DNA of 64,000 bases from Myxococcota bacterium (GTDB lineage Bacteria; Myxococcota_A; Polyangia; Polyangiales; Sandaracinaceae). The stretch is taken from positions 10,643 to 74,642 of the forward strand of contig JAYZQJ010000191.1 in assembly GCA_036149055.1 (NCBI GenBank). Direction: 5' to 3'. Positions 4,780 through 20,750 of this stretch are shown here, one piece after another. The notes beneath the pieces are model-generated. The model searched no databases. It saw only the letters and a list, made by a program, of their open reading frames with translations, and had not been told where the DNA came from. The translations under genes were made by a program, and so were the position numbers. Numbering within the stretch: position 1 is the stretch's first letter; every line of letters begins with the position of its first letter.

Positions 4780-7293
4780 GTGACGAGCAGTATCTCCGGT
4801 CTCTACCGGCTCACCCTCGAGGAGCGTCGCGAGCGCATCCGGCGGGCCACGGGCCTCGACGCCGACGCGCTCGGTCGGCTCGAGCCCGACGACGGGCTCT
4901 CCGGTGCCCAGGCCGATCGCATGGTCGAGAACGCCCTCGGGGTGTTCGGTCTGCCCTTCGGCGTCTGCGTCAACATGCAGATCGACGGCCGCGACGTGCT
5001 CGCGCCGATGGTGGTCGAGGAGCCGAGCGTCATCGCCGCGTGCTCCTACGCCGCCAAGCTCCTCCGGGCCGGCGGCGGCGTCGAGGCGGAGTGCAGCGAG
5101 CCGCGCGTCATCGGGCAGCTCCAGCTCATGGAGGTCGCGGACCCGAAGGCGGCCACCGAGGCGATCCTCGGCGCCGAGGAGGAGCTGCTCGCGCTCGCCA
5201 GCGCCGGGCACCCGCGCCTCGCCAAGGCCGGCGGCGGCGCCCGGGCGATCCGGGTCCGCGAGCTGCCGCGCATCGAGGCGGACGATCCCTGCGGCGACAT
5301 GCTCGTCGTGCACCTCTCGGTCGACGTGCGCGACGCGATGGGCGCCAACGCGGTGAACTCGATGTGCGAGCGGATCGCGCCCCGGGTGGCCGAGCTCAGC
5401 GGCGGCCGGGTCGCGCTGCGCATCCTCTCGAACCTCACCGACGAGCGCACCGTCACGGTGGTGGGCCGGGTCCCGTTCTCGCTGCTCGACGGCAAGGGCA
5501 CGGCCAACGGCGAGGAGCTCGCCAAGCGCATCGAGGAGGCCAGCGTCTTCGCCGAGCGCGACCCCTACCGCGCCTGCACTCACAACAAGGGCATCATGAA
5601 CGGCGTCGACGCGGCGCTGATCGCCCTCGGCCAGGACTGGCGCGCGGTCGAGGCCGGCGCGCACGCCTACGCCGCCAAGGACGGCCGCTACACCGCGATG
5701 GCGCGCTGGCGGGTCGAGGACGGCCACCTCGTGGGCCGCATGACCATCCCGCTCGCGGTCGGCACCGTCGGGGGCGTGGCCAAGTCGCACCCGGTCGTCG
5801 CCGTGGCCCGCGACATCGCGCAGGCGAGCTGCGCCGAGGACGTGGCCAAGCTCTGCGCCGCGGTCGGCCTCGCCCAGAACCTGGGCGCGCTCCGGGCGCT
5901 CGCCGCCGAGGGCATCCAGCGCGGGCACATGCGCCTGCACGCCCGCAACGTCGCGATCGAGGCGGGCGCCGCCGAGCACGAGGTGCTCGAGGTGGCCAAG
6001 CGCATCGCGGACGCCGGTCAGGTCAACGCGCGGCACGCCGCCGCGGTCATTCGCGAGATCCGCGGCGCGGGGGCGGCCGAGCCGGCCCCGATCGCGATCG
6101 CCGCCCGGGCGCCGAGGAAGCGCCCCCCCACCCCGGCGACGCCGCCGATCGAGACGATCGAGGAGGACGAGATGAGCGAGCTGCGACCCATCGAGCACGA
6201 GCTCGGAGGCACGATCCTGGTCACCGGCGCGGCCGGACACCTCGGCGCCAACCTGGTGCACCGGCTCCTCGAAGAGGAGGGCGTGCGGGTTCGCGTGCTG
6301 CTCCGCGAGGGCTCGAACAACGCGGCGATGGACGGCCTCCCGGTCGAGCGCGTGTACGGCGATCTCCGCGATCGCGACGCGCTCGGGCCGGCGGTCGAGG
6401 GCTGCCGCTACGTCTTCCACGCGGCCGCGCAGCTCTCCACCGTGGAGCCGACCCCCGAGATCCGCCGCGAGGTGTGGGAGAGCAACGTGCTCGGCACCCG
6501 CAACGTGCTCGCCGCCGCCCGCGAGGCGAACGTCGAGCGCGTCGTCGTGACCGGCAGCTTCAGCGCGACCGGCTACGACCTCGACGACCCGAGCGTGGCC
6601 GGCGACGAGTCGATGCCGTTCTGGCCCTTCGACGACTCGCTCCCCTACGTGCACAGCAAGGTGCTCACCGAGCACGAGACGCTGAAGGCCTGCGTCGAGG
6701 GCCTCGACGCGGTCATCGTGACGAGCTGCGCGTTGCTCGGCCCGCACGACCACAAGCCGTCGCGCATGGGCCAGACGCTCATGGACTTCGCGAACGGCAA
6801 GATGCCCGCCTACATCCCGGGCGGCTTCTCGTTCGTCGCCGCGCGCGACATCGTCGAGGGTCACATCCGCGGCCTCCAGCGCGGCGCGACCGGCCAGAAG
6901 TACATCATCGCCACCCAGTACGTGGAGGTGGACGAGCTGATGGGCATCTTCGAGGAGGTCAGCGGTCACCCGCGGCCGAAGCTCCGCCTGCCGGTCGGCG
7001 TGATGGCCCCGGTGGCCGAGGTCTCGAGCTTCGTGCTCGGCAACTTCTTCCCGAAGAAGCCGCAGCGCCTCACCCCCGCCGCGGTGAAGATCCTCAACCA
7101 GCGTCGCCGCGCCAGCTTCGAGCGGGCCCGCCGCGAGCTCGGCTACGAGCCGACGAGCATCCGCCAGGCCGTGCACGAGGCCTACGCCGACTTCGCGCGC
7201 CGCGGGCTCGTCCCCGCCCGCGAGGGCACCACCGAGGCGCCGGTCACCGAGCGCAGCGAAGAGAGCCGCGCCCGCGCGGCCACCGGGAGCTGA
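4780..7293 (+). CDS. mvaA: class II HMG-CoA reductase fused to an extended SDR (NAD-dependent epimerase/3beta-HSD/HpnA-like)
   Basis: ENALG, EEPSVIAA, DAMGAN, THNKGIMNG, GIQRGHMRLH (HMGR); then TGAAGHLG and YVHSK (SDR) from ~6172; GAGGAGG RBS before GTG 4780. Confidence 0.9.
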   Translation: MTSSISGLYRLTLEERRERIRRATGLDADALGRLEPDDGLSGAQADRMVENALGVFGLPFGVCVNMQIDGRDVLAPMVVEEPSVIAACSYAAKLLRAGGGVEAECSEPRVIGQLQLMEVADPKAATEAILGAEEELLALASAGHPRLAKAGGGARAIRVRELPRIEADDPCGDMLVVHLSVDVRDAMGANAVNSMCERIAPRVAELSGGRVALRILSNLTDERTVTVVGRVPFSLLDGKGTANGEELAKRIEEASVFAERDPYRACTHNKGIMNGVDAALIALGQDWRAVEAGAHAYAAKDGRYTAMARWRVEDGHLVGRMTIPLAVGTVGGVAKSHPVVAVARDIAQASCAEDVAKLCAAVGLAQNLGALRALAAEGIQRGHMRLHARNVAIEAGAAEHEVLEVAKRIADAGQVNARHAAAVIREIRGAGAAEPAPIAIAARAPRKRPPTPATPPIETIEEDEMSELRPIEHELGGTILVTGAAGHLGANLVHRLLEEEGVRVRVLLREGSNNAAMDGLPVERVYGDLRDRDALGPAVEGCRYVFHAAAQLSTVEPTPEIRREVWESNVLGTRNVLAAAREANVERVVVTGSFSATGYDLDDPSVAGDESMPFWPFDDSLPYVHSKVLTEHETLKACVEGLDAVIVTSCALLGPHDHKPSRMGQTLMDFANGKMPAYIPGGFSFVAARDIVEGHIRGLQRGATGQKYIIATQYVEVDELMGIFEEVSGHPRPKLRLPVGVMAPVAEVSSFVLGNFFPKKPQRLTPAAVKILNQRRRASFERARRELGYEPTSIRQAVHEAYADFARRGLVPAREGTTEAPVTERSEESRARAATGS

Positions 7294-7296
7294 GCC

Positions 7297-19149: not shown

Positions 19150-20750
19150 TCGAGACGTTCGACTACGTCGTGGTCGGCGGGGGCTCCGCCGGCTGCATCG
19201 TCGCGGCCGAGCTGAGCGAGGATCCGCGCGTCCGGGTGCTGCTCCTCGAGCGCGGGGACGACGCGCAGGAGCACCCCGAGACGCTCCGCGCCGACGGCTA
19301 CAAGGACGCGTTCGCGAACGACGCGCTCGTGCTCGAGCGCTTCAGCGTGCACGCCGATCGCTGGGGTGACCGCCGGCTCTTCATGGGCTCGGGGCACGGC
19401 CTCGGCGGCAGCGGCAACATTAACGGCATGGTCTACACCCGCGGCGCAAAGGTCGACTACGACGCCTTCCCCGAGGGCTGGCGCTGGGCCGACGTGGTGC
19501 CCGACTTCGAGCGCATCGAGGCGCAGCTCCGCCCGCGCCCCCGCGCGGCGACGGCCTTCACCGAGGTCTGCCTCGACGCGGCCGAGGAGGCGGGCTTCGC
19601 GCGCTCGAAGGACCTGAACGACGGCGACCTCGGCGGGGTGCTCGGCTACGAGCACATGAACTACGAGGGTGACGACCGGCGCAGCAGCTACGTCGCCTTC
19701 CTCCTGCCCGCGCTCGACCGCGGCAACCTCGTGGTCCGCACCAACGCGAAGGTCGAGCGCCTCACCGTCGACGAGCGGGGCGTCACCGGCGTGCGCTACG
19801 CCTGGGACGGCGGCGACCACGAGGCGCGGGCGGTCCGCGAGGTGGCGATGTGCGCCGGCGCCCTCGAGACGCCGCGCCTGCTGATGCTCTCGGGCATCGG
19901 GCCGAGCGGCGCGCTCCGGCACGTGGGCCTGCCCGCGGTGCACGAGGTGCCCGGGGTGGGCGAGAACCTCCACGACCACCCGAACGTGAGCCTCTTCTTC
20001 CGCGGTCAGCGCGAGGTCGACTGCAACTACCCGCAGCTCTACGGCTTCCACCGCGCGAACGAGGCGACCGACCTGCCCGAGGGCGCGAGCGACACCTGCT
20101 ACGTCTTCTACCCGGCCCGCAGCTCGCTCAAGGAAGCGATGATGCGCATGCTGCCGACGCTGGTGCTGCCGGAGCCGCTCTACGATCTGCCCGCGATGCC
20201 CAAGCTGGTGCGCGGCGGCGTGCGCCTCGCCTTCGGGCCGCGCGCGATGCGAGAGGCGGTCAAGCGCGTCTACGGCATCGTCGTCATCCTCGGCAAGCCC
20301 AAGAGCCGCGGCCGGCTCCGGCTCACCGCCTCGAGCCCGAGCGCCCCGGCGGCGATCGACCCGGGCTACTTCGCCGACCCCGAGGACATGGAGACGATGA
20401 TCCGCGGCGTCGAGCGCGCCCGCCGCATCGCCCGCGCGCAGCCGCTCCGGTCGTGGGGCAACACGGAGCTCTTCCCCGGCCTGCTCGGGCGCTCGCGCGA
20501 CGCGATCGAGGGCTGGATCCGGCAGAACGTGATGACCACGTATCACTACGCCGGCACCTGCGCGATGGGCGACAACGGCGCGAGCGTGTGCGATCCGCGC
20601 CTCCGGGTGCGGGGCGTGCGCGGCCTCCGGATCGCCGACGCCTCGGCCATCCCGTTCACGCCGGTCTCGGCCCTCAACGCCCCCTCCATGCTGGTCGGCC
20701 ACCGCGCCGCCCGCTTCATGCGCGAAGAGTCCCCAAGCGTGGACGCCTGA
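19146..20750 (+). CDS. GMC family oxidoreductase
   Basis: ATGA overlap; DYVVVGGGSAG, GLGGSGNINGMVY, GENLHDH, YHYAGTC, LNAP. Confidence 0.92.
   Translation: MIETFDYVVVGGGSAGCIVAAELSEDPRVRVLLLERGDDAQEHPETLRADGYKDAFANDALVLERFSVHADRWGDRRLFMGSGHGLGGSGNINGMVYTRGAKVDYDAFPEGWRWADVVPDFERIEAQLRPRPRAATAFTEVCLDAAEEAGFARSKDLNDGDLGGVLGYEHMNYEGDDRRSSYVAFLLPALDRGNLVVRTNAKVERLTVDERGVTGVRYAWDGGDHEARAVREVAMCAGALETPRLLMLSGIGPSGALRHVGLPAVHEVPGVGENLHDHPNVSLFFRGQREVDCNYPQLYGFHRANEATDLPEGASDTCYVFYPARSSLKEAMMRMLPTLVLPEPLYDLPAMPKLVRGGVRLAFGPRAMREAVKRVYGIVVILGKPKSRGRLRLTASSPSAPAAIDPGYFADPEDMETMIRGVERARRIARAQPLRSWGNTELFPGLLGRSRDAIEGWIRQNVMTTYHYAGTCAMGDNGASVCDPRLRVRGVRGLRIADASAIPFTPVSALNAPSMLVGHRAARFMREESPSVDA

Follow-up and report, generated by a model that had tools for sequence, protein, structure and literature searches.

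A Sandaracinaceae sterol operon with a candidate three-enzyme route for C-4 demethylation in place of SdmA

The closest described counterpart of the locus analysed here is the sterol gene cluster of Sandaracinus amylolyticus, an organism that has one such cluster, possesses the C-4 demethylation pair SdmAB and produces cholesterol (PMC12004948); here and below, published systems are compared from the text and tables of the papers cited. The cluster has the accessions AKF09138-43 (PMC8237579, supplementary information). AKF09143 has been assayed as the sterol C-24 reductase Bsr, an activity on desmosterol or zymosterol (PMC12004948), AKF09142 is tabulated both as squalene epoxidase (SE, there SQMO) and as oxidosqualene cyclase (OSC), a double accession that recurs in many other bacteria (PMC8237579 Table S3), and AKF09140 appears in both the SE and the squalene synthase (SQS) trees of that paper, which, judging from neighbouring labels, suggests an SE-SQS protein.

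The locus under study is an eight-gene operon in a 64,000-nucleotide stretch (the window, taken at its full length) of contig JAYZQJ010000191.1 of a Myxococcota bacterium, contig C191 in the genome that we call G000 (9.9 Mb, 96% complete). Its core is the known Sandaracinus-type sterol cluster and is not new. What sets it apart is a trio of genes, encoding a fatty-acid-hydroxylase family protein (FAH, g5), an aldehyde dehydrogenase (ALDH, g7) and a GMC oxidoreductase (g8), in a genome where no SdmA ortholog was found. With moderate confidence, we propose that the trio oxidises a C-4 methyl group stepwise to the acid, that the SdmB-like domain of g1 decarboxylates it, and that the product would be a delta-8 sterol such as zymostenol. 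The eight genes, g1 to g8 in order, and their parts are as follows (HMGR, 3-hydroxy-3-methylglutaryl-CoA reductase; SDR, short-chain dehydrogenase/reductase).

4780..7293, + strand: g1, 837 aa, class II HMGR fused to an SdmB-like extended SDR
about 4816-5943, + strand: g1 HMGR domain (PF00368, E 8e-98; TIGR00532 over cut-off)
about 6211-7209, + strand: g1 SdmB-like SDR (NF052578 SdmB, 304 bits), predicted 3beta-dehydrogenase/C-4 decarboxylase/3-ketoreductase
7297..8418, + strand: g2, 373 aa, Bsr, sterol C-24 reductase of the geranylgeranyl reductase (GGR) family
8418..11813, + strand: g3, 1131 aa, degenerate SE-like domain plus intact lanosterol-type OSC
8418-9779, + strand: g3 SE-like domain, degenerate, without GA[D/E]G
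about 9852-11738, + strand: g3 OSC domain (TIGR03463, 713 bits; best PDB match human lanosterol synthase, E 8e-127)
11858..15178, + strand: g4, 1106 aa, in three parts: SE, decayed OSC C-terminal domain and SQS
11858-13150, + strand: g4 SE domain (PF08491, E 9e-19; human SQLE, E 1e-22)
about 13457-14086, + strand: g4 OSC remnant, matching OSC 371-643 (HHalign 99%, E 7.7e-18), without DCTAE
about 14180-15058, + strand: g4 SQS domain (PF00494, E 2e-42; SQS motifs present)
15175..15882, + strand: g5, 234-235 aa, membrane di-iron FAH, ERG25-like (PF04116, E 8e-21; His boxes)
15890..17560, + strand: g6, 556 aa, CYP51 C-14 demethylase fused to ferredoxin
about 17336-17515, + strand: g6 ferredoxin part, aligned with the Methylococcus CYP51-ferredoxin 6mcw
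17575..19149, + strand: g7, 524 aa, ALDH (PF00171, E 2e-138; PWNYP, LELGG and GQNC intact)
19146..20750, + strand: g8, 534 aa, GMC oxidoreductase of the His/Asn alcohol-oxidising type (PF00732 and PF05199)

The genes are separated by 3, -1, 44, -4, 7, 14 and -4 nt, with overlap motifs TGATG at 8416 and ATGA at 15175 and at 19146, and, relative to the same-genus genome G018, purifying selection acts on each of the twelve domains that were tested (dN/dS 0.10-0.21, with dS probably underestimated at this GC). A sequence-only reading of the window had described a sterol operon of eight co-directional genes with these overlaps and small gaps, the largest of 44 nt, and four gene fusions. Coordinates and junctions agree with that description, Pfam and NCBIfam profiles recover the fusions (HMGR+SDR, SE-like+OSC, SE+cyclase remnant+SQS and CYP51+ferredoxin), and characterised homologs of the core genes support the sterol assignment, so that we regard a sterol-biosynthesis core as very probable. 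Its account of the parts holds for the fusions, to which should be added the third part of g4, the hydroxylase family of g5, which its reasoning had left unnamed, and two further co-directional genes after g8. The comparison of synteny across Myxococcota that it had suggested shows that order and fusions recur in the family, f1 in our sampling (32 genomes), which we treat as Sandaracinaceae: OSC is present in 29/32 genomes, and the order HMGR-SdmB, Bsr, SE-OSC, SE-SQS recurs among them.

Like the S. amylolyticus cluster, the operon brings together Bsr, an SE-OSC fusion, an SE-SQS protein and CYP51 on what would be a lanosterol route. The g2 protein is 73.5% identical over 374 aa to AKF09143, more than any other homolog in Table S2 of PMC12004948, and the two have DKTCG and YGWLFP in common; with the YxWxFP motif, the catalytic Cys and the sterol-gene context all present, g2 is, from its sequence, an ortholog of the characterised Bsr, which rules out a tailoring enzyme of novel function at this position. 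In the g3 cyclase, DCTAE, H232 and V453 are present, the last a residue of the published lanosterol signature (PMC4919349), and T381 is unmatched, as across the family; since its active-site motifs equal those of the family, an unusual cyclase product was rejected as a candidate. The best PDB match of g6 is the Methylococcus capsulatus CYP51-ferredoxin 6mcw (E 3e-160), aligned over both domains. The HMGR catalytic motifs of g1 align with PDB 1qax, and its SDR retains TGxxGxLG, TGSFS and YxxxK; the SDR scores 304 bits against a cut-off of 600 for NF052578, and an SdmB that lies next to SdmA elsewhere in the family scores 301. The two domains of g1 have dN/dS values of 0.13 and 0.14 against G018, so the SdmB domain (0.14) is under selection in a genome lacking a detected SdmA.

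S. amylolyticus has SdmAB, ERG24 and ERG2 and makes cholesterol; the G000 cluster contains none of SdmA, ERG24 and ERG2, and FAH, ALDH and GMC are additional to it. In relatives, SdmA, ERG24 and ERG2 are often in the cluster; here, Pfam and NCBIfam profiles found no ERG24, EBP, sterol methyltransferase (SMT) or SdmA within it, as the sequence-only reading had said. Across the genome, no SdmA ortholog was found (best hit 64 bits, partial), nor ERG2 or EBP, and SMT was not found by a family search that matched no control genome, while the SMT of a relative gave by tblastn 24-28% partial hits. Look-alikes of 8,14-Bsr and CPI1, considered as hidden partners, were likewise not found in G000, the 8,14-Bsr query being a look-alike from genome G048, in which the six residues known from print stand at +1, rather than the characterised protein; the locus differs in this from Methylococcus, with its 8,14-Bsr (PMC13277303), and has a canonical delta-14 reductase instead. 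This is the single ERG4/ERG24-family gene of G000, at C133:34080-35300, which aligns over its entire length with 4quv, a delta-14 reductase structure (E 8e-115), and is a close homolog of the solved enzyme MaSR1, so that ERG24 is not missing from the organism. Two ERG24 types seem to alternate in the family, a short one in the cluster and a long MaSR1-like one elsewhere.

These results divide the reading's other proposals. Non-canonical tailoring does not apply to the GGR-like gene (Bsr), the SDR (SdmB-like) or the C-14 reduction (on C133), and the ALDH and GMC remain as the odd part. A prior description of the architecture, which it had named as speaking against its proposal, largely exists for the core, since the S. 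amylolyticus cluster and the SE-OSC fusion are in print (PMC12004948, PMC8237579); the absence of SdmA and ERG2 and the presence of FAH, ALDH and GMC are what differs. An operon starting from mevalonate was an overstatement. HMGR is the only such gene here, and farnesyl diphosphate synthase (FPPS), a second HMGR and IDI-2 are distributed over contigs C137, C227 and C184; at C227:72130-77417, FPPS accompanies the second HMGR (52% identical to g1), together with three genes that we take to be mevalonate-pathway kinases and a decarboxylase. Taken together, the gene set would lead to a C-24-saturated delta-8 sterol and, because neither ERG2 nor EBP was found and only one ERG4/ERG24-family gene is present, the end product should be zymostenol or a 4-methyl-cholest-8-enol and not cholesterol.

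The g7 protein keeps the catalytic Cys, Glu and Asn of aldehyde oxidation, whose mechanism makes that oxidation irreversible. After myxobacterial matches, its nearest 50% clusters are eukaryotic, and the named rows near it include Tilletia and Mortierella MSC7, a glaucophyte, red algae and amoebae. In a 67-row tree, a 15-row clade of sterol-linked bacterial ALDHs (SH-aLRT 99) is sister to a 28-row clade (99; joint support 98), in which 11 of the 20 rows looked up are named, all of eukaryotic source. On this tree, g7 belongs to the bacterial sister clade of the eukaryotic MSC7/ALDH22 family, also called 'ERG27 analog', of which MSC7 is presumably the yeast member and ALDH22A1 the Arabidopsis one. 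The Chondrus protein CDF35134, which sits in the clade sister to that of g7, stands in the ERG27 column of Table S3 of PMC8237579.

The name goes back to 2009, when the family was proposed from its phyletic pattern as the plant 3-ketoreductase (PMC2817430), an idea adopted in PMC8237579. A table there lists for one metagenome-assembled genome (MAG) OSC, SQMO, SQS, ERG25, CYP51 and the ERG27 analog under consecutive accessions, so that the order FAH-CYP51-ALDH is implicitly in print. If these assignments held for our operon, g5 would be a full ERG25 performing all three oxidations, g7 a 3-ketosteroid reductase and g8 an accessory. We think this improbable, since g7 retains the three catalytic residues named above, since yeast has the gene and yet its erg27 mutants are auxotrophic (PMC2817430), and since g7 is nearly always found beside an alcohol-oxidising GMC and, in places that have SdmB-type reductases, next to SdmA as well. 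In fungi, MSC7 heads the list of genes that hyperactive Upc2A induces, in the company of ERG genes (PMC8509923), and is a chromatin immunoprecipitation target of the SREBP SrbA (PMC4223079); a single table row in PMC5928633 also bears on its induction and SrbA targeting. SdmA alone accumulates the 4-methylaldehyde (PMC10202945). The His/Asn pair of g8 is kept in 17/18 aligned orthologs, with Gln for Asn in one. From kinship, residues, the stall of SdmA and the regulation of MSC7, we infer that g7 is a 4-formylsterol dehydrogenase and that g8, as the alcohol step, is a 4-hydroxymethylsterol dehydrogenase. For g5, the His boxes of PF04116 are present, which are shared with ERG3 and others and are not diagnostic; a PDB search gave no match, searches with g5 brought up no eukaryotic sequence, and the link to ERG25 comes from 33-39% identity to FAHs that lie beside 3beta-hydroxysteroid dehydrogenase (3beta-HSD) genes and from PMC8237579. 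Atlas searches returned only family names.

In the proposed route, g4 would make squalene and epoxidise it, the g3 cyclase would convert the epoxide to lanosterol, g2 would reduce C-24, g6 would remove the C-14 methyl and the delta-14 reductase on C133 would give a delta-8 sterol. With SdmA lost, g5 would hydroxylate the C-4 methyl, g8 would oxidise the alcohol to the aldehyde and g7 the aldehyde to the acid, after which the SdmB domain of g1 would carry out C-3 oxidation, decarboxylation and re-reduction of the ketone. The core steps (g4, g3, g2, g6 and the C133 reductase) are grounded in sequence and in characterised homologs; those of the trio we infer. The scheme resembles SdmAB and SdmABC (PMC10202945) in its SdmB-like SDR with intact motifs and in the proposed overall chemistry, and differs in having no SdmA ortholog, in the fusion of SdmB to HMGR and in an oxidation that would be split over three enzymes. 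With the eukaryotic ERG25/26/27 system it shares the hydroxylase superfamily of g5 and the ERG27-analog family of g7, read here as an ALDH and not a ketoreductase.

The distribution of SdmA and the trio across the family is suggestive of mutual exclusion. With orthologs defined as at least 64% identity for SdmA, 53% for ALDH and 52% for GMC, thresholds set afterwards from gaps in the data, SdmA occurs in 13 of the 32 genomes, ALDH in 17 and GMC in 16, and FAH homologs in 22. Among the 29 genomes with OSC (the three without were left out), 11 have SdmA only, 15 ALDH only, two both (G006 and G029) and one neither; the counts for GMC are nearly the same, and the trio occurs within the family only in OSC-bearing genomes. 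SdmA was scored as absent where the gene junctions of the cluster are closed, not where an assembly has gaps. The switch recurs inside three genera, and on a tree of six cluster domains there are six independent pairs, of which a mean of 4.4 run in the expected direction and none contrary to it. A Fisher test (p 2.4e-5) was set aside, as kindred genomes are not independent.

The FAH-ALDH-GMC module varies in gene order, g5 travelling with g7 and g8, and lies inside the sterol cluster only in two genera (genus labels g1 and g4). GMC is present in 26/301 sampled genomes of the phylum. We fetched 28 GMC loci, from all 15 other family genomes with GMC and from 13 of the 25 outside ones; ALDH lies within 2.5 kb in 26 of them, FAH within 6 kb in 15 and an SdmA-like gene in 3. 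In all three genomes of family f11, the first gene of an ALDH-GMC operon, opposite a TetR gene, is an SdmA-like Rieske gene; it scores 326-347 bits on NF052579, versus 413 for an in-cluster SdmA of family f1. In one of these genomes, G285, that operon lies opposite SdmB-like and Bsr-like genes. In family f3, the ALDH-GMC pair stands beside a PaaE-like reductase, FAH and an ERG26-like 3beta-HSD, with CYP51 near in some, such as G048, and in G022 and G023 FAH, ALDH and GMC form one run with an ERG26-like 3beta-HSD. In these arrangements, FAH and SdmA are equivalent in position, either one preceding ALDH and GMC. The fate of SdmB varies with the same gene: its YxxxK is lost in G003-G005, G022 and G023, all without SdmA and all with an ERG26-like gene, and SdmB is intact in the trio genomes G000, G019, G020 and G031, where no ERG26-like gene was found. 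A broader claim, which we put forward tentatively and with less confidence than the route itself, is that within one bacterial family SdmA gave way more than once to a three-enzyme C-4 route whose last steps fall to SdmB or to an ERG26-like enzyme. In that case MSC7/ALDH22 of fungi, algae and protists would be a 4-formylsterol dehydrogenase of the ancestral sterol pathway and not the plant 3-ketoreductase that is being sought.

Three loci of this survey have unusual arrangements. At L169:4695-6620, in a genome without an OSC match, a PaaE-like ferredoxin reductase is fused to FAH in an operon with ALDH and GMC. L174:2428-5173 has CYP51 followed by an 8,14-Bsr look-alike (Y38, Y44, Y79, Y81, D134, D137) and a presumably CPI1-like gene. 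An MMPL transporter, an EBP-family gene, ALDH and GMC form one run at L172:6795-13392, again in a genome without an OSC match.

Several observations weigh against the C-4 route. The roles of g5, g7 and g8 in it are putative, and g5 has LSP where most of its kin have HP. SdmA acts on the 4beta methyl and SMO on the 4alpha (PMC6385002), and E. salina is described as without homologs of the eukaryotic C-4 enzymes (PMC10202945), whereas PMC8237579 lists one. A lone FAH without ALDH or GMC occurs in at least three SdmA genomes (G008, G013 and G014), five trio genomes carry an SdmA paralog of 36-47% that might serve, and neither an ERG26-like ortholog nor an FAH reductase ortholog was found in the 96% complete G000. 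Three outside genomes hold both a 55-57% SdmA and GMC. The sign test on the independent pairs falls short of significance, with a median p of 0.125 (0.0625 when G029 is left out), the identity thresholds were chosen after the gaps had been seen, and many genomes are fragmented. Together with the two family genomes that have both, the last points leave some room for the pattern being an accident of lineage and incomplete MAG assemblies, SdmA having simply been lost and the trio being non-sterol; we consider this the least probable of the explanations discussed, because SdmA is absent from closed junctions, no pair runs contrary, and three families link ALDH-GMC to sterol genes.

A more serious competitor, unlikely in our view yet the strongest of them, is that the substrate of the trio is another methyl, such as C-26 of the side chain, or an alkyl chain that is not part of a sterol, which would be oxidised to an acid; the organism would then make 4,4-dimethyl sterols or sterol acids, close to the oxidised steroid that the sequence-only reading had suggested. 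A hydroxylase, GMC and ALDH with a PaaE-like reductase follow the generic logic of terminal oxidation, as in the series of alkane hydroxylase, alcohol dehydrogenase and aldehyde dehydrogenase. Moreover, 12/25 outside GMC-bearing genomes have no OSC match (22/25 hold FAH), 11 of the 15 other GMC-bearing family genomes have the module at a distance from the sterol cluster, and the bacterial ERG25 clade includes many bacteria not known to make sterols and has entries from Alcanivorax, Ketobacter and Flavobacteriales (PMC8237579). Oxidation at such a position would nevertheless account neither for the way in which SdmA and the trio almost exclude each other nor for the operons that join SdmA to ALDH and GMC, the ERG26-like gene within the operon or the selection on SdmB without SdmA. 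The trio in OSC-less f3 genomes, with CYP51-, CPI1-like and 8,14-Bsr-like neighbours, would also suit demethylation or remodelling of sterols that are acquired from prey or from the environment, in which case the trio would have joined the operon secondarily. This seems very improbable to us, since here the genes of the trio alternate with CYP51, separated by no more than overlaps or gaps of 7-14 nt, as they also alternate in four other genomes of two genera, and since the family trio is confined to genomes with OSC; the chemistry would in any case still be C-4 oxidation. In the literature consulted, we found no assays of bacterial ERG25 or ERG27-analog enzymes, and the parts of PMC10152446, PMC6385002 and PMC8172173 that we consulted likewise report none. 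Searches that did not reach figures, most subscription journals or bioRxiv supplements turned up no publication dealing with the GMC partner, with the exclusion between SdmA and the trio or with the inactive domains described below.

The fusions are family-wide and already in public records. In the order given above, the four occur in a single frame in 22/24, 24/24, 24/25 and 11/13 testable family genomes, the two CYP51-ferredoxin misses appearing fused in open reading frame listings, and RNA contigs from four runs show no insertions or deletions at the locus; this recurrence and the indel-free RNA contigs rule out assembly errors. RNA contigs cannot show a single transcript, and operon structure is read from gene layout. 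In run X1, the operon contigs have a depth of 18-26 versus 5-9 for the flanks, but in runs X3 and X4 the highest depth is over the upstream EAL gene, and the libraries may contain DNA; depth was not used as evidence. A promoter and terminator scan performed at chance level (0 promoters; 4 terminators versus 2.8 expected). Other fusions occur elsewhere: L015:5026-8763 encodes a 1245-aa protein in which HMGR, SQS and SdmB are fused, with SdmA and SE-OSC following it, and L010:5453-12993 has in one run an SE-SQS fusion, HMGR, a free OSC and a sterol methyltransferase.

The two epoxidase-bearing genes most likely arose when an SE-OSC fusion was duplicated long ago and the copies then lost activity reciprocally, g3 having kept the cyclase and g4 the epoxidase. 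The duplication is deduced from the cyclase remnant in g4 and not from the SE tree, where the g3 and g4 domains were not resolved as sisters. The g4 domain has the GxGxxG, GA[D/E]G and GD..HP motifs for FAD as well as SQLE homology; the g3 domain fails the FAD motifs, with GASVAG and FAAG in their place. GA[D/E]G is found in 0/28 family genomes in the OSC-fused domain and in 29/29 in the SQS-fused one (the motif counts draw on G029), and GADG in 18/20 single SE-OSC loci from other taxa, which were not dereplicated; Y195 of human SQLE is F in g4 and likewise in 20/20 of the single loci. Both dead domains are vertically inherited, with dN/dS of 0.18 and 0.16, and have probably been retained for a structural role. 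A Polyangiaceae locus, L015, has a GAAG-type SE and no second SE in 21 kb, which speaks against a simple link between loss of the motif and a second copy. A single-sequence fold of the middle part of g4 (pLDDT 51) was not used, and a complex prediction for the g3 and g4 epoxidase domains was not informative (score 0.00).

Around the operon, a hybrid histidine kinase and an S41 peptidase follow in the same direction at 20769-23906 (+ strand; gaps of 18 and 3 nt) and a receiver-EAL gene lies divergently upstream at 3228-4514 (- strand); these neighbours recur in G018. Farther along the window, a lower-GC stretch at 43227-52703 (- strand) carries a type VI secretion VgrG and a DUF2169/Rhs protein, and 60447-62333 (- strand) encodes a second triterpene cyclase-like protein of 628 aa, about 26% identical to the g3 OSC, with DCDD (DxDD-type) for DCTAE.

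The fusions are of minor interest; the weight of the locus lies in its exchanged C-4 module and in a reassignment of MSC7/ALDH22 that can be put to the test. Bacteria and eukaryotes are said to differ in sterol synthesis at C-4 demethylation, a step relevant to sterane biomarkers and to the question of whether eukaryotes took the pathway from myxobacteria. The operon places an ERG25-like enzyme, the 'ERG27 analog' of 2009 and a previously unnoticed GMC partner beside CYP51 in a genome where SdmA was not found. Should the proposed route hold, yeast MSC7 and its relatives in algae and plants would gain a function, and the plant 3-ketoreductase would have to be sought anew.

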